Part shown: in pieces, positions 2,200-52,282 of the stretch
Numbering within the stretch: the stretch's first letter is position 1
Layout: each line of letters begins with the position of its first letter
IMG/VR virus record: IMGVR_UViG_3300048590_000075
Coordinates: 1-53,153 of that record
DNA: 53,153 bases
Direction: 5' to 3' (one strand)
Source: a virus
Lineage: Duplodnaviria; Caudoviricetes
Made by a program: the position numbers and the translations under genes
The notes under the pieces: model-generated
What the model saw: the letters and a program-made list of their open reading frames with translations, nothing else
The model's database searches: none
What the model was told of the DNA's origin: nothing

Positions 2200-4828
2200 T
2201 GATCACCGCCGCCAGAACGGTGCAGGGCCGCGGCGCATTGGCGACCAGGCAGATGCGGTTGTCGGTATCCCAGTCGCCGGGAAACTCGATCATGTCCTGA
2301 TCGTAGGCCGCCCATACCGTGCCATCCGCCACGTCATCACCATCCTCGACAAGCGGCAGATCGTCCAGTGTGTTGAAGTCAGGCCCGAACTGAAGCCCCT
2401 GAGCGTGCGTGTCCGCCAAGAGCAGACCGATCTTGTTGACACGTGTGCGCTGCGTCAGGGATACGCCCATGCCGGTCTGGCCGATCAGCTTGGCGCTGCG
2501 ATAGCGCGCCTGATAGCCGAGTCCGGCGCACCATGTCGTGAAACTGGCCGTGAGCGTCGGCAGGGCGCCAGCCACAACCGCGTGCGTGCCCTGATCCGCG
2601 CCATCCGCCCACACCACCACGTCCTTGCCTTCCAGATGCGCCAGCCCCGACACGACGCCCGTCCCGGTGATGGAGCTGTCCGCGAGAAGACTGAGCGCGC
2701 CACCGGCACATTCGTCGATCCGCGCCAGTTCCTCATGATACCGCACGTCAACCCCGCCAATGGTGCGGCGCACCCGGAAGAACACACGATCCTCGATCAC
2801 CGCCGGCAGCACACATACATCCTCGATCACTCCGTCCGTCTCAAGCGGCACCCAGCACACGACATTCTCCGCATCGTCGCGCACCAGGAGCGCCACCGTC
2901 CCGTCCGACAGCACGCAGTAGAGGCGAAAGTCAGGCTCTTCCTGGGCTGCGATCTTGACGATGCCCGCGCCGGAGACTTCCGGCACGAGAATGTTCATCT
3001 TCGTCGCCGCGTAGTCGATCCCGGTCTGATCCGGGCGCAACTCATAGAGGCTGATCGTGTCGCCGCCCACGAAATAACCGACCTTGCCGGAAATGGCCGG
3101 CATCAGCGCAGCGGCTCCCTTCCCGGTAGCCGTCTTGACGTTGTAGTTCGACGGCGTGATCGGCTCGTCAAGCGACGACGACCGCACCACCTGCACCATT
3201 GCGCTTGTGCCGACGAACATCCGCTCGATCGCCATCGCCCAATTCACGTCGAACCCGGCCGCGTCGGAGACCGTGCGGTTGATCGGCGCGGCGTCTCCCT
3301 CATAGTCTGGATCGAACGACGCATAGGCGTCCGAGATCGACCCGAAGGCGCGGCCATTGCCGAACCACCATAGCCGGCCCTGCGATATTTCCACCGCACT
3401 CGGCCAGCCCCGCCAGTCCGACCACGCGCCTTCCGCCCAGATCGTCGTGGCGGAGTTGTCGCCCAAGTCCTTCAGCACGATCGCGCTGGCCGATGTTGCC
3501 GACGTGTAGCCCGTGATCCGCACCACGCCGATGATCGATCCAGCCGAAAATTCGAGGGTTACGTCTGCCGCCCCCGATGTGTAGTCGCCAGCATCGAACC
3601 CCATCCGGTAATAGGCTACCGTGTTGTCAAGCCCATCCGCGTAGTTCGCCGTGCCGTTGGCGGTATAGGTGTTCACCGTCACCCATGCGCCGACATCGCC
3701 GATGGAGCGCTGAAGCCTGAGCGTCCCCGCCCATGTGCCGGCAATGGTGAAGGTGAAGCGCCTGTCCGCGCCGACGCCAGTCACCCGAATGGGGTTGGTA
3801 TAGGCCAGATCAGCCACCAGAAGCCCCTTGACGCGCTGGCCCTGCGACGTGAGACGCCAGAGCGCCCCGACATGCGACGACCGGAACAGCGGCTGCGTCG
3901 CCGTGAGCGTGATAGCCCCGGAAATGGCCGACGGCGTGATCGACACGCTATCGACGTTCTCCACCAGGAACGGCCCGTCGTTCGCCTCGTAGAGCACGAG
4001 CGACCATGAATTGTTGTCGCGCCGCTCGATCCGCCGTTGCTGAACATTGGACGCGACGAAGATCACATCTCCGCTCTGGCGCCAGCGCAGCGTCTTGTTG
4101 TCGGCCGCCGTCGGCCATGGCGTCGGCAGCGTCACGACGCCGCTTTCAATGGCGATGCTGTCCACCAGCACCGGGTATTTCAGGATCGACGAAAACTCGA
4201 CATGGATCGTCGCGTTGCCGGATGGGTTGACGGCGATGCTGTGAACGCCCGTGCGCAGCACGATCTGCCGGAACACGTCATCCGCGCCGGCCGACGAGCC
4301 GATTCGCAGAACGACCGGACCACGCTGCACCGTGATCCGCAGCCCGTGAACCGTGCCGGTCTCCGTGACGCTGATTGACTGGCGCTGGCGCGCCGCAGAG
4401 AACCCGGTCCCGAGCAGCCGCATGTAGCCGCCGGACGACCATATCGAGGAAGCGCCAGCCTCATCCGCCGATGTCCACCCAGACAAATCGCTGTCGAACG
4501 TCCCGTTCGTGATCGTTGCGGCAACTGTCGGGCGACTAACCCGTGTCTCCCCATCGTCCCATATCCGCATCCCGAAGGACGACAGTTCCAGAATGGCGGT
4601 ATCGTCGCGGGAAAACACGAAGGGGATGTAGGAACCATCACCGCCCACCGTCGCGCCCGGCCCGTGCTTCTTCATGCCCGGCCGCAGCGACATCGGCCCA
4701 AGCACCCGCGGCAGCCAGTTCGTCTGTTCCTCGGCCGACAGCCGCACCCGCTCCACATCGACCCGCGCCACCGCCATCCGGCCGATCAGACCGCGGTTGA
4801 ACGTGGCGAGAATGTCGCGCGTCTTCAT
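2174..4828 (-). CDS. Tail tubular protein B / nozzle
   Basis: 884 aa, N-terminal FNRG motif, WPSAV..QGRLW; follows the adaptor gene. Confidence 0.8.
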   Translation of the reverse strand: MKTRDILATFNRGLIGRMAVARVDVERVRLSAEEQTNWLPRVLGPMSLRPGMKKHGPGATVGGDGSYIPFVFSRDDTAILELSSFGMRIWDDGETRVSRPTVAATITNGTFDSDLSGWTSADEAGASSIWSSGGYMRLLGTGFSAARQRQSISVTETGTVHGLRITVQRGPVVLRIGSSAGADDVFRQIVLRTGVHSIAVNPSGNATIHVEFSSILKYPVLVDSIAIESGVVTLPTPWPTAADNKTLRWRQSGDVIFVASNVQQRRIERRDNNSWSLVLYEANDGPFLVENVDSVSITPSAISGAITLTATQPLFRSSHVGALWRLTSQGQRVKGLLVADLAYTNPIRVTGVGADRRFTFTIAGTWAGTLRLQRSIGDVGAWVTVNTYTANGTANYADGLDNTVAYYRMGFDAGDYTSGAADVTLEFSAGSIIGVVRITGYTSATSASAIVLKDLGDNSATTIWAEGAWSDWRGWPSAVEISQGRLWWFGNGRAFGSISDAYASFDPDYEGDAAPINRTVSDAAGFDVNWAMAIERMFVGTSAMVQVVRSSSLDEPITPSNYNVKTATGKGAAALMPAISGKVGYFVGGDTISLYELRPDQTGIDYAATKMNILVPEVSGAGIVKIAAQEEPDFRLYCVLSDGTVALLVRDDAENVVCWVPLETDGVIEDVCVLPAVIEDRVFFRVRRTIGGVDVRYHEELARIDECAGGALSLLADSSITGTGVVSGLAHLEGKDVVVWADGADQGTHAVVAGALPTLTASFTTWCAGLGYQARYRSAKLIGQTGMGVSLTQRTRVNKIGLLLADTHAQGLQFGPDFNTLDDLPLVEDGDDVADGTVWAAYDQDMIEFPGDWDTDNRICLVANAPRPCTVLAAVINVDRHDNE

Positions 4829-26295: not shown

Positions 26296-26434
26296 CATTC
26301 CCCGCCCACATCATTCACGCCCCGCAGGCCAGCCGCACGGGCGGGCGGCGCACCCTGCGTAACGACATGAAGGCTCTGCCGACCGGGAGGCGCCTGGCTC
26401 TGGGCAGGCCAGGCTGCCAACATTGGAGGATGGC

Positions 26435-26812
26435 ATGACGCGCGCGCTCCCCGAGTGGATCGGCAAGACGCCGGACACGGCCATTCCCGCCCGCGTGCGG
26501 GTGCGGGTTTTCGAGCGCTACGGCGGCGTGTGCCAGGAGACCGGCCGCAAGATCGCCGCTGGCGAGACTTGGGACTGCGACCACGCGCTTGCCATCATCA
26601 ACGGCGGCGAGCACCGGGAAAGCAACCTGCGCCCCGTCCTGCGTGCCGCCCACCGCGCCAAGACGAAAGACGACGTGGCGATGAAGGCCAAGACGGCGCG
26701 GGTGCGGAAGAAGCACCTTGGGCTGGCGAAGGCCAGGTGCCCGCTCCCCGGCTCAAAGGCCAGCGGGTGGAAGCGAAAAATTTCAGGCGAGACAGTCAGG
26801 AGGGACGAATGA
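26435..26812 (+). CDS. HNH endonuclease
   Basis: VF.R..G.CQ..WDCDH..GG.H.ESNL. Confidence 0.85.
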   Translation: MTRALPEWIGKTPDTAIPARVRVRVFERYGGVCQETGRKIAAGETWDCDHALAIINGGEHRESNLRPVLRAAHRAKTKDDVAMKAKTARVRKKHLGLAKARCPLPGSKASGWKRKISGETVRRDE

Positions 26813-27048
26813 CAGACATTTCCGATCCGCTGACCGACGCGGATGCGCGCATCCGCAGTGCGCTGTGGGCGGCATGGCACGCGCTGGACAACATTGCCGA
26901 AGCGGCGGCGCACACCGTCGGCCAAGTCAGGATCGGCCCGGACGGCGAGGGCCAGGACTTCGCGGACGATCTTGAGGCGATCCGCGACGAAGCTAGCGCC
27001 GCCAGCGCCGCGATCAATGCGTTGATGTACCCTGGAGAGGCGGCATGA
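26809..27048 (+). CDS. Hypothetical protein
   Basis: ATGA-coupled. Confidence 0.6.
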   Translation: MTDISDPLTDADARIRSALWAAWHALDNIAEAAAHTVGQVRIGPDGEGQDFADDLEAIRDEASAASAAINALMYPGEAA

Positions 27049-27101
27049 GCGCCCGTGTCCTGATAGCGTGCGAAACCAGCGGGATCGTGCGGGAGGCATG
27101 A
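27045..27101 (+). pseudogene. 18-aa remnant of a different phage DNA methyltransferase N-terminus
   Basis: [18 protein letters not shown] matches the VL.ACE.SG.VR.A N-terminal motif. Confidence 0.6.
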
Positions 27102-28423
27102 CGAATGTGGTGCTACGTCCCAGAAACGGGCTCTCCCTCTGCGCAGGCGGCGGAGGCCTGGATATGGGCCTCATGCTCGCAGAGCCCGGATTTCACACCC
27201 GCTGCTTTGTCGAGTGGGAGGAATACCCCCGAGACGCCCTCATCGCCGCCCAGCGGGCCGGATACTTCGCGCCAGCCCCGATATGGGATGACCTCACCAC
27301 ATTCAACGGACGGCCATTCCGTGGCGCATTCGACACCATCCTTGCCGGATACCCGTGCCAGCCATTCAGCCATGCCGGGCAGCGGCGGGGCCACGACGAC
27401 GAGCGCCACCTGTGGCCCGACGTTGCCCGGATCGTCCGGGAAGTCGAACCGGAATGGGTATTCCTCGAAAACGTCGCCGGGCATGTCAGCCTCGGCGCAG
27501 AGACCGTGCTGCGAGAGCTACGAGAAATGGGTTTCACGCCTGCGGCTGGCCTCTTCTCAGCGGCTGAGACAGGCGCGCCGCATGAAAGGCTCCGCTGGTT
27601 CTGCGTGGCCCACCGCCGCCACGCGGGACCATCACGCGCAGGGGGCTGGGCACAACACGGCAGCGCAATCCGACAGTCTGGCGACGATGGTCGAGGCGAA
27701 GTGGCCCACGCCGATGGCGGGCACCCCGGCGCAGAACGGGAACAGCGCGGCGGGGAGCAGCGACTTCAGCCGGAAGGCGGAGGAGTTGGCGCGGGCGATG
27801 TGGGGCACCCCGCGCGCATCGGACGCGGAGAAGGGCGGGCCGAACCAGGCATTCGGAGCGGGCGGGACGCCCCTGCCGGCACAGGCAGCGCAATGGCCCA
27901 CTCCGATGGCCGGAACGCCAGCACAGAACGGCAACAGCGCGGCGGGGAGCAACGACTTCACCCGGAAAGCCGACCTTCTGGCGGCGGGTGTGCTGGCCTC
28001 GTCATGGCCGACGCCAGCGGCGCAGAACGTGAAGGGCAGTTCCGAGGGCAGCATCACGCGCGCGGATGGCAAGTCAAGGATGGACATCCTGCACTACCGC
28101 GCGGAGCAGGGCTTTTCCCACCCGGCCCCGGAGACGCAGCCGCATGGGCGGCCGTCCTCCGATCCTCGCCAGACATGGCGCCGGCTGCGGCGGCTCGTGA
28201 TCTCCACGCATGGGCGCGCCGTCTGGAAGCGGATGGCCGCGAGTGGTGGCAAGCGGAGGCTGAACCCGCTTTTTGTAGAATGGTTGATGGCCTTTCCCAT
28301 AGGTCACAGCCTTTGCGGCTTCTCGGGAACGCCGTCCACCCCCTCACCGCCGGCCTTGCATGGCGATCACTCGCCGCAGCGCACGGCCTCCAGCCAATCG
28401 ACCTCGGAGGAACTGAACGATGA
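27098..28423 (+). CDS. C5 cytosine methyltransferase, catalytic (alpha) frame
   Basis: Motif [44 protein letters not shown]; no motif IX in this frame. Confidence 0.92.
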
Positions 28424-28961
28424 TCGAGAAGACGTGCGCCCACTGCGGGGCGACCTTCCAAGCGGAGAGGGCGAGAAACAGATTCTGCGGGAAGCCGTGC
28501 CAGCACGCGGCGTCGAGGTCGGGAAAAGGCTACGTCCAGACGAGCGAGGGACTGGAACACCGGCTGGTCATGGAGGCCCATCTTGGCCGCAAGCTGCGCC
28601 GCGACGAGCACGTCCACCACAGGAACGAGGACAAGAGGGACAACCGTATCGAGAACCTGGAGTTGCTGACGGTTCGGGAGCACGCGAGTCTGCACAAGTC
28701 GAAGCACCCGAAGACGAAGACCTGCGTCGTCTGCGGCGAGACCTTCATCCCGCATCCGGAGACCCGAGGGCGGGTCAAGACGTGCTCGAAGGTCTGCCGC
28801 TACAAGTCGCAGGCGCGGTCGATGCTCGCGCGAGCTTCCTGACATGGCGGCGGCACATGCGTGGCGCACTTTGTCGGCTGCCCACGGCCTCCGGTGCGTG
28901 GATATGGGCGCCGCCGAAGGAGATGCCGAAGCCGGTGCAAATCGAGATGTTCGGAGGATGA
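27105..28961 (+). CDS. Overlapping-frame (beta) subunit of the C5 methyltransferase with TRD-like modules and motif IX
   Basis: 618-codon open +1 frame; five W(P/G)T modules; [15 protein letters not shown]; internal duplication diverges synonymously in this frame. Confidence 0.75.
28420..28842 (+). CDS. HNH endonuclease with Zn-ribbon domains, inserted in the methyltransferase 3' end
   Basis: [30 protein letters not shown]; CxxC..FC..C ribbons. Confidence 0.9.
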
Positions 28962-28969
28962 CGAAATGA
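28844..28969 (+). pseudogene. Orphaned original C-terminus of the alpha frame
   Basis: [17 protein letters not shown] vs [17 protein letters not shown]; same frame, 501 bp downstream. Confidence 0.75.
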
Positions 28970-29024
28970 CAGCACACCAATGGGGCGATCATGCCGCACG
29001 GGCCTATCAGCGGAGGGCGGCGTG

Positions 29025-29243
29025 ATGCGTTCTGACCTGCACGACCTGCCCGTGATCTACCAGCACATGACCGACCGCGCCGTCTGCGTGCGCGAGACCG
29101 AGGACGGCCCGGACATCTGGATCCCGCTCAGCCAGTGCGAGATCGCGCCGCGGGAGGCCGACCCCCTCGGCGGGCTGGCGCGCGGCCGGGTGGCGATCCT
29201 CACCGCACCCGAGCGGGTGCTCATGGAGAAGGGGCTGATATGA
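29025..29243 (+). CDS. Hypothetical protein
   Basis: T.RAV..WIP.SQ.E..PE..EKGLI pattern. Confidence 0.7.
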   Translation: MRSDLHDLPVIYQHMTDRAVCVRETEDGPDIWIPLSQCEIAPREADPLGGLARGRVAILTAPERVLMEKGLI

Positions 29244-29497
29244 AACTGCGCATCGCACTCCGCGCCGAAGGGAATTTCTGGAACGCCTATCTGGCGCTGC
29301 CCGACACGATGGACGGCGCGCAGATGATCGGCTCGATCGCGCTCGGCTCGGCCAAGCGGAACCCGAAGATCAAGCAACGCTTCATCGACCTCATGCAGAT
29401 GGTGTTTAAGGACGCACTGAAGACTCAGACGGGCGTGACGGCGGAAGAATTTACCATCGAGCGCGCGCCCGAGCACGAGCGCGCCGGGAACGCATGA
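29240..29497 (+). CDS. Hypothetical protein
   Basis: ATGA-coupled. Confidence 0.7.
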   Translation: MKLRIALRAEGNFWNAYLALPDTMDGAQMIGSIALGSAKRNPKIKQRFIDLMQMVFKDALKTQTGVTAEEFTIERAPEHERAGNA

Positions 29498-45481: not shown

Positions 45482-45667
45482 ATGACGAAGTTGCTCAGGA
45501 TCGCGTTTGCCGCGGTGAGCCTGTTTCTGGCCTTCGGGCTTTTCATTAGCGCCGGGCGCGACCCCGGCCATGCGTCAGGTCTGCTTTTCATGGCCGCGAT
45601 GTTTGCGACCAACGGCTTTCTTCACTGGACCGCGCGATCAGCGGGCCAGCGGGTTGCGCCCGAGTAG
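45482..45667 (+). CDS. Small two-TM protein, opposite strand
   Basis: AGGAGG RBS; two hydrophobic segments. Confidence 0.65.
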   Translation: MTKLLRIAFAAVSLFLAFGLFISAGRDPGHASGLLFMAAMFATNGFLHWTARSAGQRVAPE

Positions 45668-48600
45668 CGCCTCGGACATCGGCACATCATCGCTCAGCGC
45701 GCCCTCGATCGCGCGCATCGGCCCGGTTGTCGGAAGCCCGGTGATCATGCCGACGCTATCGGCGATGGCCCGGCGAAGTGCCGCGTCATTCTCGCCCTGT
45801 GCCGCCTGCGTCAGCAGCCGCGCCGGCGCATCGGCAACCGAGCCGTAGATGCCACCGCCGCCGAAACCCATGAGCGCCGAATACACGTCGCGGATGATCG
45901 GGATGCCACCGACGATCGCCGAGCCGGTTTCCCGCAGCAGGAAGCCCTTCAGGTCATCATCGTCGTCATCGTCGGAGAGCGCAGACCACAGAAGCGCCGT
46001 CAGTATCGCCTCCGTCCAGTAGAGCAGCGCCAAATTGGTCGCCGCCGTCAGCACCACACCGACGCGCTGCGCGCCCGCATCGGCATCGCGCCATCCGATC
46101 CTGGCCCGCATGGCTTCCACATGGGCGCGATTCATCTTCGTCAGCATGTAGCCGCCGAGTGTGGTGAAAAATCGCACCACGTCGGCTTGCCGCGTCGTCT
46201 CCGACAGGGTGCCGCGCTCGAAGGCGGCACGATCTGCCATGAGGCCGCTGTCCTGCGACCGCGCCACCATGCGATCCGCGTAATGGGCAGCCTTGCCTTC
46301 ATCCCCGAACCTCTCGACACCCGAGCGGAACGCGCCCAGCCACGTCGGCATGTCCACCGCCCAGAACTGCGTCCAGACGATCGGCGCGAAGCCGATCTTG
46401 CCGACGACCGCCTTGCCTTTCTTGTAACCGGACGCCACCGGCCCGGCGAGTTGCGTGTCGTCCATGAAGTCGTGAATGTCCTTCTGGAACGTCGACCGCC
46501 GCTCGCGCATGAACACCGACATGGCGACCACCGCCGCCGCAGTGCCGCGCGGGTTCCGCAGGTATTCCAGATAGCCGCGGACCATGTTGCGCTTGCCGAT
46601 GACCACCGCCGACTGCCCGACGCCAGTAACTTGCATCGCCACCGTCTTGAAGTTCAGAGCCAGCCGCGACAGCGTGAAGTTGTTCTTGACGATGCGGAAC
46701 ATGGTGTTGAACGCATCCGGCGATGGCGACGGCCCCTTCGCCACGTCCTTCAGCCACAGCTTCAGGATGTCGTGCTGATCCTTGGCGCCGGCATCGAGAA
46801 ACGCATTCATCACGTCCGGGTGCGAGATCAGCCGGTAGGTGTTATCCACCGCCTCCGATAGCGCGATGTATCGGATCGTGTCGCGCATGTGGGCGAAGGC
46901 TACCGACACGTCGAGCCGCAGCGTGCGCCCGCCACCGGACTTGGCACGCTGCTTCGTCATGCCGTTGCGGATCGCTGCCGTCGCGCCCCGTCCCGTCGCC
47001 GTGAACTTGTCCCATGCCGAGGCTTCATCCGCCGCCGCTGCCGCCGAAAGCGTCGGATCGTAGCTGATCGGGTAGTAGCCGCCCGTCACGAAGGAAGGCG
47101 CGCCCACCATCAGCTTCGCCTCGACCTTCTTGGGCACGACACCCGTCCGGCGATGCGCAACCTCGGCCAGCCCGGACCAGTAGGAGTTCACCATGTCCCA
47201 CATGTCTTGCACGAACCGCCAGTCGGTATCGTCCATCGTCGCCAGAAGCGCGTCAACTTGGCCCTTCGTCAGCCGGTTTTTCATGGCCGCATCCGGCGCG
47301 GTCAGCCGCAGGTAGTTATCCTCGTTGCCGGCGTTGAGCGCGACGGCGAGAATTTCCAGCTTCGACCACGCCCGGTCGTTCGCGCCGGGAATGTCGCGTT
47401 CCACCTTCATCCGACGAATGTCGGCGGCGCTGTAATGGCTCTTGAACAGCGCATCGAGACGCTCGGCCATCTCGACATTCATCCGGTGCTCTTCGCTTGT
47501 CGCCTCGTCAATGGAGCGCTTTACCTCATCATAAGCGCCGCCGAGTTCCTCGCCGCCATCCATGCGGATCAGGAGCGTGTCGGTGCGCCACAAGAGGTTG
47601 AACGCCTCCGCGATCCGGTGCCGCTCACCCGCCTTTCCGGTGCCGAGGTTCTTGCGGATCAGCCCGGAGACGCGATCCGCCGACGCCTGCAACTCGCGCT
47701 TGCGCTTGCGGTCGATCAACGCCTGCTTGAATCTGCCCATGTGGTCGATATTGGCGACGGTATCGAAAAGGCCGCGCAACTCGTCCACCGACAGCTTCGT
47801 GTAATGGCGGCGGTTCACCGCGTCGATCAGCCGCGCGTCGACATTCAACTCGCCCTCGCGGCCTTCCTCGATCATGCGGTCCACGAACGCCTTCAGGCTT
47901 TCCGCCCGTGCGATCTGGCGCTGGCCACGGATGCGGAAGTCGTAGTCCTCAAGAATGGCGTCGATCTGTTCGATATAGCCGCCGTCCAGTTTTTCCCTGA
48001 CCGACTTCTTCGTATAGGCGCGCATCTTCTCGCGCCCCTTCTGGACGTATTCGGCGACATTGCGGGATTCGTCGTAAATGAAGCCGTTGAGGATCTGCTG
48101 TTCCTTGGCTTGCAGCGCCTCGGCGAGCGCCTGTTCCGCCTTGCCGGTGCCGCGCGCCACCGTGGCGAATGCATCCTGTGCCGCCCGCGCCGCCTTGCGT
48201 TCCGAGGCAAGGAACCGCTCCGGCCGGATCACGTCGCGCACCATCATCCGGCCGACCATCTCGCGCGCCCGGTGACGGTATATCTTCGCCGTCATGCCGG
48301 CCGTGTCGCGTCCGAGCCGCCGCGCCATGTGCCGCGCTTCGGCGACCGACAGGTTCGCCTGTTGCTCGCTGTGAATGGCGGCCAGCGCCTCTTCCTCGAT
48401 CGTGCCGTCGTTGAGCGGATCGCCGTGCCGCTCGACCATCCGCCGTTCGACTTCCGCGGCGATGGCATCGCGCTTGCGCGGCGTGTTCTGCAAGGTCCGC
48501 ACCATCTCGGCCGCCGAGGCGAAGCCGAAGAACTGCGCCACTTCTTCCGGCGCCGTGCCGTTGTCGCCGTAGATCGCCCGCTTGCCGCCGAGCTGCTGGC

Positions 48601-51600
48601 GCGACACTTCAGCCAGAACGCCGTCGCCGAACTGTTCCACCAGTGCCTTGCGGTCGATCTGCATGTCGGGAATTTCGGCACCATCCACCGCGCCTTGCCA
48701 AGACTGGTTGGCGAGCAGATCGACAAGCCGGTATTCGCGCCGCCGTTCCACATCCGCCGTGACTTCCGCCAGCACCGCCTTCTTCTCGGCCCGATACCAC
48801 GCCTCGCGCTCGCGCCGCACCTTTGCCATCACCCGCGCCATCAGCGACTGTTCGGCCTGATCCACCGCCCGCCGCGCCATGCGCTGATATGTGGTGAAGT
48901 CGGTTTGCGACATGCCGGGAGGGGCATCGGCGAAGAGCGGACGCATCGCCTGTTCCTCGCGCGCCGCCTTTATCTCGGCATCCGTCGCCAGCATCCGGTC
49001 CATGACCTCGCGGATTTCCGGCGTGATGTTGACCTTGAGGCCGCGCGCCGTGCGGTAGATGCGCGTGAGCCACGCCTTGAACCGCGCAAATGCATCGGCC
49101 AGCGCCAGCGACGGCGCCTTGCCTTCCATGACGTAAGCCTCGAACCCGCGCGCCCATTGCTCATGCTGCGGCACGCCGACTTGCCCCCATCCCTTGACGC
49201 CAAGCCAGGCGAAGATCGCCGCCAGATCGTCCTTCATCGCCTGCGGGGCATGTTCTTCCGACGCCAGCGCGTTGAAGGCCTCGAGGAAGAAATGCCCCGA
49301 CTCATGAATGAAGGTGCTTAAATTGGCCGACTCGAACAGGTTGATGACGGTCTGCCCGGCGCGAACGCCACCCTGTGGCAGGACGATGGAGCCGCGGTTG
49401 CCGATGGAACCGTCTGGTTGGAACATGGTTTTGTCAATTTTTACGCCGCCCTTCACCCCTACCGAGTACCCGGCGGCGATGAAGTCCTCAGCGGTGCGCA
49501 GATCATCTCGACCCAGATACGCCGACGCTTCTTCTGGTGACAGAAGCCGCGCGCCAGGCATATCAAGATCAACCATGATGTCGGATAGCGGCACATCGAC
49601 GGGAATCACCACGCCATCCGGCCCCGCGTAATCTTCCGCGACCGATCTTCTCGAAGTAAAAAACGCAGGTCCGCTTATTTCCCCTGCGTCTTTTATGCTG
49701 TCCGCTGCCTCCGCGCTTGTGCCATGATAGAGACGCACCAGCCCCGGTTGCCCGTATTCAGCGCCGCCGGCCGCATCCAGCGCCGCGGCGATTTCGTCAT
49801 TCGTCATCGTCGCCGGATCAAGCGCCCGCTCGCTGAGCGCGTCCGCCAGCGCCTGCATGTCAGGGTCCGGGCCCTCACCCTCGGCATAGACCTTGCGGCC
49901 CGCCACGTCCTCGCTCAGCGCGTCCAGCAGCCGCGCCGCGAAGTCTGACGCCTCGCCCTTGGTCCCGATGTTGACCTCGCCTATGAGATCGGGGAAATAC
50001 CCCGCCTCGGCTGCAAGCCGTCCCATCTCGTCAAGCGACATTCCGCGCCCGGCTGCCGGCATCACCCCGCCGAGCGACGGCTGCGATGCGCGCGCCTTCA
50101 TCTGCGCCGCCGTTTCGGCCACCACGCCCTTCGGCGCGTCCATCGCCGCCACGTCGCCGCCGGCGTCCTGCACACCGCCCTTCGCCTTGACGAACTCGGC
50201 GAGCGACAGTCCGCGCGGCTTCAGCGCTTTCTCGCCCTTCGTCCGCAGCGTGTTGAGCGCGATGTCGAGTGCATCGCGGCGGCGAAACTCTGGCGACTGC
50301 GGCCCGCGCACCCGAACCGGCATGTCACGCGACATGTCCAGCGGGTCTTCGCCATAACGCTCGCCCATGGTGCGCCAGAACGCCGCCCACATCGTCGCTT
50401 CCTGCCGCGCCGCGTCCGGCGAGCGGCCGGCCTCGCGCAGTTGCGAAAACATGTCGTCGTATATCTGCACATCCGCCGCGCGGGTGGCGTCCTGATCAAG
50501 CCGCGCCGCCTCGGCTTCCTCGAATGCGTCCTGCATGATGTCCTGCACGCGCATGTTGAACGCGCGGACTTCCGCCAGCGACAGTTCCTCGGGATCGGTC
50601 GTGGCGTTCTCGGCGAACCACGCCGCCGCGTCCGTCCCGGCGATGTAGGTGGCATAATTCGACGCGGGCACCGCCACGGCATTGCCGGACTGCGCCGCCT
50701 CGTCGAACGTCACCGGGTCAATGCCCCACGCGCGCATGGTATCTTCGTCGAACGCCACGTCCTTGGCCTGGAAATACTCCCGCAAGGCATCGGCCGGGAC
50801 ATGGATCGTCTTGTCGCCGAGTCCTTGCGCTTCCAGCGCCTCGCGGAACTTCTCCGGCGCGCGCACCTTCAGCCGGGAGGCTGCCGCCTGTGCGTCCGCC
50901 TCGGCCAGCGTCTCCGCCGTCTCCCCGGCGGTCCCCGCCTTGACCGCGCCGCGCAGCAACCTGCGTCCACCGACACCGATAACCTCGATCGGGGCCGTAA
51001 CCAGTTCGGCCAGCCCCTCGATCACGATGTCCTTCCATGACACATTCTGACCCGACGCCAGTTGCCCGAGGGCTTCGCCGCCGCCGCCAAGGCCGACCTG
51101 TGCCAGCCCTTGCGCGATCATGTCACCCGCCGGAGACTTCATCAGCGTCTTGCCGGCAACCCCGCCGGAGATCGCGTCCATCATGCCGATGACGAGACCG
51201 CGCGTCAGTCCGCGATCACGGGCCGCTTGCATCAGGTCCGCATCCTGCAAGGCCGCCATGGCGTCTTCCGGCGTTTCCATCCTGACGCCGCGCTCGGCTA
51301 GGAACTCCATCGTGGACGCCGCGTTTTCCGTCAGCCCCGACACCGTGCCGAGCGTCAGAGCGCCCGCCGCTGGACTGCGCGTCACCACCGTCACCGCCGA
51401 GGCGCCGAGGATCGCCGGCAGGAACTCGCCCGCGACCTCGGCCGCGAAGGCCGCGCCGCGGATCGGATCGCTGGCAAAGGCGCCGAGCGCACCGAGGAAG
51501 GTATCCTCGGCATTGGCGAGGGTTTCGTCGCGGAACGCCGTCGCCGGCCCGGACATCGGAATGGAGGCGATCTTGTCGGACCGCTCCCGCGCCGACAGGA

Positions 51601-52282
51601 GCGCCGCAGAACCGCGATCCAGAAGCCGCCGCACATCCTCGGGGGAGAGATCACGGGCGGCATCAAAGCGCACCTGCGCCGCCATTAGCGCCATCGACCT
51701 CATGGGGGCAGGCGCCGAGTCACCGCCGACCTGTGCCAGTTCCTCGGCGATGAGATCGTCCAGCGAGCGGCCGACATCGGCGATCCGCGCCGACGTGCCC
51801 TGCACCGACAGCACGTCGCCGGCCATCGGAATGCGCCGCACGCCGCGCTCTATCATGCGCCCGGCCGCAGACCCTTCCGCAGCATCGCCCATCTCGACAA
51901 GGCCCTGAGATGGCGCGTTGAGGACGCGCTCCCACCACGTCAGGTTGTCGAGATCGTCCTTTGCAAGAACGCCGTTCTCCCGATCCGCCAGCCATGCCGC
52001 CGTCTTCGGCGCTCGCCGCAGCCCATCTGCCGCCTGCTTCATGCGCAGTTGCAGATCGTAGGCTTCCGGGTCGGCTCCGACGACCACCGGGTTGATGCCA
52101 AGCGCCGCGCCAACCTGCCGGCTTTTCGCCTCTGCGTCAGGATCGCGCTCGTCATAGGTCAACGCCATCCCGACCTGGCCAGCCTGTTGCGCCTTCATTG
52201 TCTCGGCCGCACGGGCGAGCGGCGAAACTGCACCGGTCTGTTGCTGTTTCAGAAGTTCGGCGGCGGCGGTAAAGTCGTTCAT
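45638..52282 (-). CDS. Large internal virion/ejection (polyvalent) protein
   Basis: 2214 aa; LYHGT ART-like module, FIHESGH..HEQWARGFEAY zincin-like motif. Confidence 0.8.
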   Translation of the reverse strand: MNDFTAAAELLKQQQTGAVSPLARAAETMKAQQAGQVGMALTYDERDPDAEAKSRQVGAALGINPVVVGADPEAYDLQLRMKQAADGLRRAPKTAAWLADRENGVLAKDDLDNLTWWERVLNAPSQGLVEMGDAAEGSAAGRMIERGVRRIPMAGDVLSVQGTSARIADVGRSLDDLIAEELAQVGGDSAPAPMRSMALMAAQVRFDAARDLSPEDVRRLLDRGSAALLSARERSDKIASIPMSGPATAFRDETLANAEDTFLGALGAFASDPIRGAAFAAEVAGEFLPAILGASAVTVVTRSPAAGALTLGTVSGLTENAASTMEFLAERGVRMETPEDAMAALQDADLMQAARDRGLTRGLVIGMMDAISGGVAGKTLMKSPAGDMIAQGLAQVGLGGGGEALGQLASGQNVSWKDIVIEGLAELVTAPIEVIGVGGRRLLRGAVKAGTAGETAETLAEADAQAAASRLKVRAPEKFREALEAQGLGDKTIHVPADALREYFQAKDVAFDEDTMRAWGIDPVTFDEAAQSGNAVAVPASNYATYIAGTDAAAWFAENATTDPEELSLAEVRAFNMRVQDIMQDAFEEAEAARLDQDATRAADVQIYDDMFSQLREAGRSPDAARQEATMWAAFWRTMGERYGEDPLDMSRDMPVRVRGPQSPEFRRRDALDIALNTLRTKGEKALKPRGLSLAEFVKAKGGVQDAGGDVAAMDAPKGVVAETAAQMKARASQPSLGGVMPAAGRGMSLDEMGRLAAEAGYFPDLIGEVNIGTKGEASDFAARLLDALSEDVAGRKVYAEGEGPDPDMQALADALSERALDPATMTNDEIAAALDAAGGAEYGQPGLVRLYHGTSAEAADSIKDAGEISGPAFFTSRRSVAEDYAGPDGVVIPVDVPLSDIMVDLDMPGARLLSPEEASAYLGRDDLRTAEDFIAAGYSVGVKGGVKIDKTMFQPDGSIGNRGSIVLPQGGVRAGQTVINLFESANLSTFIHESGHFFLEAFNALASEEHAPQAMKDDLAAIFAWLGVKGWGQVGVPQHEQWARGFEAYVMEGKAPSLALADAFARFKAWLTRIYRTARGLKVNITPEIREVMDRMLATDAEIKAAREEQAMRPLFADAPPGMSQTDFTTYQRMARRAVDQAEQSLMARVMAKVRREREAWYRAEKKAVLAEVTADVERRREYRLVDLLANQSWQGAVDGAEIPDMQIDRKALVEQFGDGVLAEVSRQQLGGKRAIYGDNGTAPEEVAQFFGFASAAEMVRTLQNTPRKRDAIAAEVERRMVERHGDPLNDGTIEEEALAAIHSEQQANLSVAEARHMARRLGRDTAGMTAKIYRHRAREMVGRMMVRDVIRPERFLASERKAARAAQDAFATVARGTGKAEQALAEALQAKEQQILNGFIYDESRNVAEYVQKGREKMRAYTKKSVREKLDGGYIEQIDAILEDYDFRIRGQRQIARAESLKAFVDRMIEEGREGELNVDARLIDAVNRRHYTKLSVDELRGLFDTVANIDHMGRFKQALIDRKRKRELQASADRVSGLIRKNLGTGKAGERHRIAEAFNLLWRTDTLLIRMDGGEELGGAYDEVKRSIDEATSEEHRMNVEMAERLDALFKSHYSAADIRRMKVERDIPGANDRAWSKLEILAVALNAGNEDNYLRLTAPDAAMKNRLTKGQVDALLATMDDTDWRFVQDMWDMVNSYWSGLAEVAHRRTGVVPKKVEAKLMVGAPSFVTGGYYPISYDPTLSAAAAADEASAWDKFTATGRGATAAIRNGMTKQRAKSGGGRTLRLDVSVAFAHMRDTIRYIALSEAVDNTYRLISHPDVMNAFLDAGAKDQHDILKLWLKDVAKGPSPSPDAFNTMFRIVKNNFTLSRLALNFKTVAMQVTGVGQSAVVIGKRNMVRGYLEYLRNPRGTAAAVVAMSVFMRERRSTFQKDIHDFMDDTQLAGPVASGYKKGKAVVGKIGFAPIVWTQFWAVDMPTWLGAFRSGVERFGDEGKAAHYADRMVARSQDSGLMADRAAFERGTLSETTRQADVVRFFTTLGGYMLTKMNRAHVEAMRARIGWRDADAGAQRVGVVLTAATNLALLYWTEAILTALLWSALSDDDDDDDLKGFLLRETGSAIVGGIPIIRDVYSALMGFGGGGIYGSVADAPARLLTQAAQGENDAALRRAIADSVGMITGLPTTGPMRAIEGALSDDVPMSEALLGRNPLAR

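Follow-up and report, generated by a model that had tools for sequence, protein, structure and literature searches.

The viral record IMGVR_UViG_3300048590_000075 (Caudoviricetes) was analysed over its whole length of 53,153 nt, referred to here as the window. On its + strand it carries a gene for a putative C5 DNA cytosine methyltransferase that is open in two overlapping reading frames. Frame A is an open reading frame (ORF) from 27068 to 28423, comprising 451 amino acids (aa) when counted from GTG and containing an in-frame ATG at 27098. Frame B, at an offset of +1, starts with its own ATG 7 nt further downstream, is open for 618 codons and overlaps the complete coding region of frame A. 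We refer to the two products as alpha and beta. An original prediction made from the letters of the window had described both frames, which are confirmed by the ORF list, and had interpreted them as the chains of a heterodimeric methyltransferase resembling M.EcoHK31I, an alpha/beta enzyme reportedly described by Lee, Kam and Shaw in 1995. A Shine-Dalgarno-like element is located 5' of both starts: from its GGAGG the spacers are 1 nt to the frame A ATG, 8 nt to the frame B ATG at 27105 and 10 nt to a frame A GTG at 27107. The positions of all features are given in Table 1.

Among deposited phages, DNA-level relatives were limited to 14 records, none of which covered 80% of the gene, and we therefore used protein-level searches. 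Using a piece of frame B we found 80 viral contigs, in which the layout was read from the matches to the frame A N-terminus and to frame B. In 78 of them these matches were offset by +1 and both stop-to-stop frames spanned the gene; the remaining two (L072 and L081) had no frame A match. In the relatives frame B opens about 10 nt after the beginning of frame A and typically stops 16 nt past the frame A stop; in the close relative L004 the beta stop is located 8 nt before the alpha stop. The 5' junction is conserved as ..GGGGTGCGGTGAATGGCATGGTG.. (..TGAATG..): the TGA is in B phase, the ATG of frame B follows directly and the GTG or ATG of frame A lies beside it. A frame B start was found at a distance of at most 7 nt from the 5' end of the gene in 52 of 54 non-redundant loci (ATG in 49, GTG in 3). 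The same two co-extensive frames occur in the distant phages Erwinia vB_EhrS_59, Bordetella PHB09, Komagataeibacter phiKX1 and Tunturiibacter Tunturi_1 and in contig L087, all reported as lower in GC than the window.

Proteins in which frame A is fused to frame B are rare: two among the 120 beta relatives listed, and three among 82 with PF00145 in a search for longer forms (E<=1e-10). A conserved single-chain fused family was rejected as an explanation, because each fusion (P0054, P0120, P0142, P0151, P0165) is a singleton with a junction of its own and is read as the result of indels or errors. In two of the viral contigs, L011 (~3800–3842) and L077 (~3540–3596), a late indel runs frame A into the beta tail (..AHAWRSSQLPMASGPWIW..); these are either sequencing errors or decaying copies. 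Annotators have treated the family inconsistently: the Bordetella and Erwinia records (L001, L002) name frame A a 'cytosine methyltransferase', and frame B is called 'DNA methyltransferase' in Tunturi_1 (L085, 1408–2379) and in the RefSeq plasmid pRA03 (L086, 2537–3286). For pRA03 the PLSDB gene table, which is incomplete, lists just beta and lacks alpha.

We aligned 75 gene regions and kept 55 that were less than 93% identical to each other; the DNA of these relatives is 65–73% identical to the window. Numbers of stops were compared with expectations from synonymous resampling with background codon usage. Over the 160 codons in which frame A is under selection, frame B contained no stop in 55 of 55 loci, with 2.9 stops expected per locus and a mean probability of being open of 0.025. 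The +2 frame, used as a control over the same codons, had 2.87 stops and was open in 4 of 55 loci. The situation is reversed in the middle of the gene: where frame B is under selection, frame A was free of stops in all 55 loci (2.5 expected, P(open) 0.09), and the third frame was open in one of 55. Two relatives with a GC content of 53–56%, L002 and L085, have +1 frames without a stop over 322 and 326 codons, respectively; when the codons of the A gene were permuted synonymously in 500 trials, L002 met the observed length in 0/500 and L085 in a fraction of 0.002. The refuting condition named with the original prediction, a +1 frame closed by stops upstream of motif IX in homologs, was thus seen in none of the 55 loci.

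In order to assign selection to one of the frames, column entropy was calculated by codon position across the 55 loci, with locus L042 as reference. The variation shows that the frame apparently under selection alternates A, B, A, B, A along the gene. Frame A is selected at reference nt 31–510 (motifs I–VIII), frame B at 511–750 (W-x-T-P modules to HYRAEQGF), frame A again at 751–810 (PPGPGD..W..PDLAPA), frame B at 811–930 (motif IX-like segment) and frame A at 931–990 (RLLGNGVHPLAAAHAWR, motif X). From 991 to the end at 1093, corresponding to the beta tail, the signal is weakly in favor of frame B. At reference nt ~900–990 entropy is low at all three codon positions, and these bases are therefore taken to be constrained in both frames. 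The GC content at third positions of the B phase in the window is 0.77–0.93 across 27570–28290, in agreement with selection on frame B there. Likewise, the two copies of an 86-nt duplication in this part of the gene differ at 13 positions, 10 of which are third positions of frame B, and 3 of 28 residues are changed in frame B vs 12 of 28 in frame A. Frame-specific selection across homologs, also named as a check for the original prediction, is thus seen. The proposed dual coding over about 1.3 kb stands as far as openness of both frames is concerned; simultaneous constraint on the same bases is restricted to ~100–150 nt. The leader of frame B and the linker of frame A are open without being conserved, which is understandable only if translation covers the full length of both ORFs.

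Table 1. Features of the methyltransferase locus in the window.
Feature	Position	Strand	Basis or remark
Shine-Dalgarno-like GGGAGG, 5' of both starts	27091..27096	+	read from the sequence; putative function
alpha ORF (frame A): motifs I–VIII, unconstrained linker, PPGPGD..PDMAPA, motif X (GNAV), stop overlapping the HNH start (ATGA)	27098..28423	+	
beta ORF (frame B, +1): unconstrained leader, five W-x-T-P modules, motif IX-like element, read-through of the HNH cassette, conserved tail	27105..28961	+	
Frame-A-selected segment, putative catalytic/S-adenosylmethionine domain, motifs I–VIII; frame B just kept open	27128..27610	+	entropy maximum at A third positions
Frame-B-selected segment, five W-x-T-P modules to HYRAEQGF; frame A an open linker	27606..28115	+	entropy maximum at B third positions
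Internal module duplication, 86 nt, 85% identical, 192 nt apart	27696..27973	+	
Short frame-A-selected segment (PPGPGD..PDxAPA)	28112..28189	+	entropy, reference nt 751–810; part of the predicted interface
Frame-B-selected segment, motif IX-like	28173..28325	+	entropy, reference nt 811–930; aligns to RLNPAFVEWMMGLNPGH of PrincessTrina gp82
Motif X region, frame A; 5' part overlaps the end of the B-selected segment, bases constrained in both frames	28301..28372	+	aligns to LKALGNGVCP of gp82
Inserted 501-nt cassette: second, diverged copy of the alpha 3' end (to 28423) and HNH gene	28346..28846	+	comparison with uninterrupted L004; repeat spacing 501
HNH endonuclease gene, third frame, nested in the beta ORF	28420..28842	+	PF13392 E=6.6e-13; PHROG HNH families
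Native beta C-terminal tail, in phase again past the cassette	28847..28961	+	invariant columns; matches ends of P0003, P0007, P0098 and others
Native alpha 3' end remnant (frame A phase, 41 codons), severed from alpha by the cassette	28844..28969	+	translation equals the end of uninterrupted L004 alpha

Inspection of frame A by eye revealed ..LCAGGGG.., PCQ, ENV, ..RLRWF.. and GNAV; PCQ, ENV and GNAV we take to be motifs IV, VI and X, respectively. Residues 22–185 of alpha match Pfam PF00145 with 113.4 bits (cut-off 22), covering only profile positions 4–164 of 324, i.e. motifs I–VIII; the NCBIfam model TIGR00675 gave 73.4 bits, below its cut-off of 100.65. Against solved structures the alpha profile matched M.HhaI (E=2.5e-18, motifs IV–VIII) and M.HaeIII (E=1.5e-12, motif I to VIII). 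Invariant among 50 aligned alpha sequences are P86 C87 Q88, E124 N125 V126 and G410 N411 V413. Further invariant columns are L333, G338, P341, P342, P344, W350 and P362 in the PPGPGD segment and L408, L409, G410, N411, V413 and P415 around motif X. The middle of alpha (approximately residues 179–345) is unconserved and predicted to be disordered, with a predicted local distance difference test score (pLDDT) of ~30; when alpha was folded alone, the prediction was confident in residues 1–178 only. A frame A product with catalytic motifs and a low-information middle, as originally described, is therefore what the profile match and the alignment show. Since frame A has no conserved region between motif VIII and PPGPGD, alpha lacks a recognisable target-recognition domain (TRD), and a TRD and motif IX were not found together in this chain.

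The frame B product appears to belong to a genuine protein family. Its middle matches PHROG 27243 (unknown function) with E=8e-65. In a large protein collection, 2549 relatives at E<=1e-3 were present among 8000 candidates scored, nearly all of them without Pfam domains and, where named, mostly called 'hypothetical protein'. The beta profile retrieved 14,628 cluster representatives with a threshold of E<=1e-3 and 4,038 when the threshold was E<=1e-10, and tblastn with frame B hit 29 deposited phage genomes, mostly under features called methyltransferases or hypothetical proteins. The expectation that gene callers would miss beta did not hold: the 2549 database proteins and 14,628 cluster representatives show that it is often called, and in some records it is alpha that is missing.

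The motif IX-like peptide had been placed at 28254–28298, and beta residues 384–398 map exactly to this position. Invariant columns in and around this segment are R376, L386, N387, F390, V391, W393, L394, P398, H401, C404 and S407; L589, P593, W599, W601 and Q612 are invariant in the tail. In addition to the motif IX-like element, to which the original description had been confined, beta holds the conserved W-x-T-P modules, and these five modules are likely to be the target-recognition part of the enzyme, as judged from their position and from homology to gp82 of the phage PrincessTrina. Their number varies among relatives: in uninterrupted loci the beta ORFs comprise 322–511 codons, mostly 362, 389 or 420, and contig joints in the module region skip 111, 180 and 183 nt. 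The variation (window 27606–28115, loci L004–L083) suggests exchangeable recognition cassettes.

An arrangement of the same segments in a single frame is found in the Arthrobacter phage PrincessTrina (L084). Here the methyltransferase is encoded by two genes: gp81 contains motifs I–VIII, and gp82, inspected by eye, combines eight LLPTP modules with RLNPAFVEWMMGLNPGH and GNGV in a single frame. The beta core of the window aligns over its residues 37–242 to residues 168–382 of gp82 (E=1e-12, 29% identity; hhalign probability 98.4%). The alpha C-terminus aligns to residues 346–415 of the same protein, including GNGV (E=0.002). Because both the beta core and the alpha C-terminus align to gp82, the segments that alternate between two frames in the window correspond to segments arranged in the same order in one frame in gp82.

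We predicted the structure of a complex between alpha (441 aa, alignment of 50 sequences) and beta residues 160–409 (alignment of 56), a further check suggested at the outset. The interface score ipSAE was 0.89, 0.88 and 0.89 in three runs and 0.00 in all three controls; the runs shared at least 50% of contacts, and pLDDT was 54–55 for the partner and 62 for the other chain. The score mark was met by 116 of 157 solved complexes and by 2 of 215 mismatched pairs, figures that are a rough guide here, where author-built alignments were used. The confident interface comprises alpha residues 18–23, 46–56, 155–164, 339–378 and 393–416 and beta residues 299–309, 329–343 and 349–406, with the closest predicted pairs between alpha 360–363 and 405–415 and beta 385–396. 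The predicted interface segments are those preserved by selection. The prediction supports a binding of alpha to beta.

The 3' part of the locus is interrupted by an HNH cassette. In L004 the gene is uninterrupted and beta ends with ..WQQHMRGALSALPTASGPWIWAPP..FGG*. In the window 501 nt separate two repeat copies (28357–28391 and 28858–28892). Alpha finishes within the cassette via a diverged second copy of its own 3' end, and beta stays open across the entire cassette before returning to its conserved tail. The 618-codon frame is therefore open as predicted, with its last third (~28346–28846) being read-through of the cassette and not native methyltransferase sequence. The HNH gene is in phase 1 and beta in phase 0. 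Inside the HNH ORF of the window the beta phase contains no stop vs 4.2 expected by synonymous resampling (P=0.009).

Metagenome contigs were searched with the HNH protein, a query that does not depend on whether frame B is open, and 56 loci were returned. Only two of them (L098 and L099) share the layout of methyltransferase, HNH gene and beta tail, and in both alpha is closed at the HNH start and beta is open through the HNH gene. Here the beta phase is also free of stops (P 0.010 and 0.017; 3.6–4.2 stops expected across the three loci), and the other phase contains 2–4 stops in the HNH ORFs of the window, L098 and L099. The HNH protein of L099 is 70% identical to that of the window. The one of L098 (2001–2420) is 100% identical, with an adjoining beta core of 76% identity, a pattern that would fit either a recent horizontal transfer of the cassette or recombination within the methyltransferase gene. 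Among 11 viral-contig loci with HNH relatives, only L087 has a (distant) methyltransferase upstream. In a set that is biased to long ORFs, an in-frame insertion of ~90–260 residues at the same site was found in seven cases (P0020, P0129, P0131, P0134, P0138, P0147 and the window-like L098). The distribution is patchy: the HNH gene is absent from L004, and a DNA contig of run X2 joins 28149 to 28845 with 194 other letters, representing an HNH-less allele.

The 20 sequencing runs with any of the 2-kb stretch contained 0.14–0.48 of the sampled words, and their contigs are silent on transcription level, strand and ends. Independent DNA and RNA-library contigs reproduce the sequence over the alpha 3' end, the HNH gene and the beta tail and cross the cassette junctions unspliced; carry-over of DNA in the RNA libraries is possible. 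For a group I or II intron around the HNH gene, Rfam gave no match at E<=1 in 26900–29300; no search aimed at inteins was made.

We noticed a mirror image of the arrangement in phiKX1 (L003, 2625–3143) and L087 (1664–2056): an HNH gene separates the frame B end from the frame A motif X and is read through by frame A. L087 looks AT-richer than the window and its read-through frame looks protein-like. In the HNH alleles the doubly coded 3' end (28346–28969) appears 'unzipped': the copy before the HNH gene reads well in frame A only and frame B uses the copy after it, a natural experiment in how dual constraint is relaxed. A small ORF upstream of the methyltransferase (26423–26812) has a weak HNH match (PF01844, E=0.0069, 17 bits, cut-off 21.4), and the locus may thus be flanked by two nuclease genes.

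On evidence that is comparative and predicted throughout, we consider it likely that the locus encodes a phage cytosine methyltransferase of the M.EcoHK31I kind whose two subunits are read from two frames. The openness of both frames, the frame-specific selection, the homology to gp82 and the predicted interface all back this inference of the original prediction. We infer that both frames are translated from their 5' starts and that the products assemble into an active enzyme. One mRNA with two co-extensive frames offset by +1 would give rise to two polypeptides of one C5 DNA cytosine methyltransferase. Alpha would provide the large domain, composed of the N-terminal motifs I–VIII and the C-terminal motif X with PPGPGD..PDxAPA, joined by an unconstrained linker of ~160 residues. 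Beta would start 7 nt past the start of alpha from the same Shine-Dalgarno element, begin with an unconstrained leader of ~160 residues and supply the five W-x-T-P modules, the motif IX-like helix and the conserved tail. The chains would assemble by pairing the motif IX region of beta with two segments of alpha, PPGPGD and motif X, and would thereby rebuild the usual two-lobed enzyme. A homing-type HNH gene would have inserted 3' of motif X, with alpha kept whole by the duplicated 3' end ahead of the HNH gene and beta by an HNH gene without a stop in the beta phase.

A more far-reaching version is possible, and we regard it as rather doubtful. According to this version, the segments of one ancestral single-chain enzyme were dealt alternately (A, B, A, B, A, B tail) to two co-translated frames with their order on the mRNA kept. 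Paired indels would move segments between the chains without loss, and the ancestral temporal order would allow co-translational assembly. Thousands of phage methyltransferases would then share this organisation as a general mode missing from annotation, and it would be strong enough to make an invading HNH gene respect both frames.

Several observations weigh against the two-subunit reading. The complex score may owe something to what the prediction model has learned from single-chain C5 methyltransferases, where motifs IX and X are in contact. Taken alone, the beta core is predicted poorly (mean pLDDT 54.8) and the alpha C-terminus weakly (pLDDT 40–71). Beta has no sequence relative in Pfam, NCBIfam or the PDB, its sole match occurring by chance at E=1, and the labels 'motif IX' and 'TRD' were assigned to it by position and gp82 homology, with no curated model behind them. 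The 55 loci share ancestry, and 55 of 55 open frames are not independent events. The 1-nt Shine-Dalgarno spacing of the frame A ATG is poor, leaving the real start of alpha uncertain; GTG at 27107 or 27110 may be used instead. Finally, beta of the window has a foreign insertion of 167 residues and F in place of the consensus C406, and this particular copy could be impaired.

Of the competing explanations the most durable, although still unlikely, is that alpha is the whole methyltransferase and that the frame B product is an accessory protein (a specificity modulator, a regulator or an unrelated DNA binder) or a short form made from an internal start. Alpha does hold all S-adenosylmethionine-binding and catalytic motifs as well as motif X. 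Gene callers often start beta internally, yielding 248-aa forms such as P0098 with 380 member sequences, and beta of M.EcoHK31I tolerates N-terminal deletions according to the available part of PMC2836561. Such a division of labor is difficult to reconcile with the lack of a recognisable TRD in alpha and with the homology of beta to the TRD/motif IX part of gp82. In addition, a leader of 160 codons that is open in 55 of 55 loci would be unneeded with an internal start, and the consensus before the first module (..ARRTSG.ASSSWPTP..) contains no conserved start codon.

It is far less probable that programmed ribosomal frameshifting (A>B>A>B>A) yields one polypeptide and thereby recreates an ordinary single-chain enzyme. 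Along the DNA the selected segments do follow the order of the single-frame relative; four efficient shifts would be required, however, and the 55-locus alignment has no invariant stretch of at least 8 nt except GCGCCGCA inside motif VIII, so that a conserved slippery site is lacking at the switch points. The open B leader with its own ATG and the open middle of frame A would also be left unexplained.

We give slightly less credit still to the idea that conservation of frame B reflects a constraint on the DNA or RNA itself, such as recombining repeat cassettes or structure. The module region is repetitive and variable in copy number, as seen from the lengths of the beta ORFs and the joints described above. 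Against this, loci differ in the way typical of protein-coding sequence, with variation concentrated at B third positions, protein homology extends to phages with unrelated DNA (29% identity to gp82), and no Rfam match was obtained in 26900–29300.

The least credible explanation is a decaying or mis-sequenced single-frame gene whose indels mimic two frames, the long +1 ORF being a by-product of 66% GC: the GC content of 0.65–0.68 with many long spurious ORFs in the window and the frame-swapping indels in a few relatives (L011, L077) would fit, but pseudogene and sequencing-error readings are contradicted by comparative conservation, namely the same offsets in 78 of 80 loci and in phages of 53–56% GC, the frame-specific selection, a stop-prone +1 frame that is open in 55 of 55 loci against a probability of 0.025, and the independent DNA and RNA-library contigs.

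The window represents a phage genome or prophage with a GC content of ~66%. Its other genes encode a terminase, a head-tail adaptor, tail proteins, a primase, a helicase, an Erf-like protein and an exonuclease. On the - strand, a 2214-residue ORF (45638–52282) matches PHROG 9880 (function unknown) with E=1.3e-295 and represents a giant phage protein. No tRNA or tmRNA was found in the window.

If the two-subunit reading holds, the EcoHK31I-like overlapping layout would be the norm in a very large phage and prophage family (14,628 or 4,038 representatives, depending on the E-value threshold of the beta profile). Annotation that keeps one of the two frames would have produced many 'DNA cytosine methyltransferases' with a meaningless middle, and many 'hypothetical proteins' would be the recognition subunits of such methyltransferases. 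A same-strand overlap of more than 1 kb in which both frames are held open by selection would be among the longest in DNA viruses. The family may thus serve as a natural system for studying the origin and maintenance of overlapping genes, the exchange of specificity modules and the adaptation of a homing endonuclease to a doubly coding target. In practical terms, it would change the prediction of phage methylomes and anti-restriction functions.

Nearly all characterised C5 methyltransferases are monomers, M.AquI and M.EcoHK31I being the exceptions according to the part of PMC3404938 that was available. M.HhaI and M.HaeIII resemble the window in the part covering motifs I–VIII, to which the alpha profile matches, and differ in being a single chain from a single frame. 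No sequence-level match to the TRD or motif IX of these two enzymes was obtained with the alpha and beta profiles, and the beta profile matched no solved structure.

A closer resemblance exists to the split of the M.AquI type represented by gp81 and gp82 of PrincessTrina. In both cases the enzyme is divided past motif VIII and the second gene contains L/W-P-T-P modules and RLNP.FVEW.MG, and beta is homologous to gp82. In M.AquI, as far as described in the available part of PMC3404938, and in gp82, as judged by eye, motifs IX and X share one chain and one frame, and the genes overlap at their ends only. In the window, by contrast, the GNAV of motif X is read in frame A and the motif IX-like element is read in frame B from bases that overlap, so that motifs IX and X do not lie together in one chain. 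Relative to gp81/gp82, motif X has moved to the frame of motifs I–VIII, and because it is located there the two ORFs of the window overlap fully.

For the HNH cassette the closest counterpart is the 'ShiLan domain', an out-of-frame HNH in actinophage methylase genes with the host frame reading through (PMC11855218, available in part). Based on that part, the cassettes agree in that the HNH gene lies in another frame inside a phage methylase gene, the host frame is free of stops and the distribution is patchy as expected for homing. No intron or intein signature is described for the ShiLan domain; in the window the Rfam scan gave no intron match, and no search aimed at inteins was made. Compared with what the available text describes, the host gene is here double-coding, one frame being saved by the duplicated 3' end and the other by stop-free read-through, and the HNH gene of the window is an ordinary visible ORF with an ATG overlapping the alpha stop.

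A literature search for a phage two-frame C5 methyltransferase returned no description of one, the only papers found being those on M.EcoHK31I and ShiLan; methyltransferases are not mentioned in PMC8788219. M.EcoHK31I is thus the only published precedent that we found. In this enzyme from E. coli HK31, which recognises YGGCCR, beta is encoded entirely within another frame of alpha; alpha contains motifs I–VIII, motif X and a predicted TRD, and beta contains motif IX (available parts of PMC2836561 and PMC3404938). Beta tolerates N-terminal deletions of 42–67 residues (available part of PMC2836561). As far as these partly available descriptions go, the window shares with M.EcoHK31I two polypeptides, with beta in an alternative frame of the alpha gene (here +1), and the distribution of motifs I–VIII and X to alpha and of motif IX to beta, where motif IX of the window was assigned by its position adjoining motif X in gp82. 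The dispensable N-terminus of beta in M.EcoHK31I also fits the unconstrained beta leader of the window.

Judged by the published description only, and by those parts of it that were available, there are three differences. Beta of M.EcoHK31I is nested in alpha, whereas the ORFs of the window are co-extensive. The predicted TRD is in alpha of M.EcoHK31I, whereas the only conserved candidate recognition modules of the window are in beta, and the corresponding part of alpha shows no amino-acid selection. Finally, in the window the selected frame alternates along the gene. Co-extensive ORFs, recognition modules in beta and an alternating selected frame therefore appear to be the new elements of what seems, from these comparisons, to be a very common variant of the M.EcoHK31I organisation, here carrying a ShiLan-like HNH gene that respects both frames.

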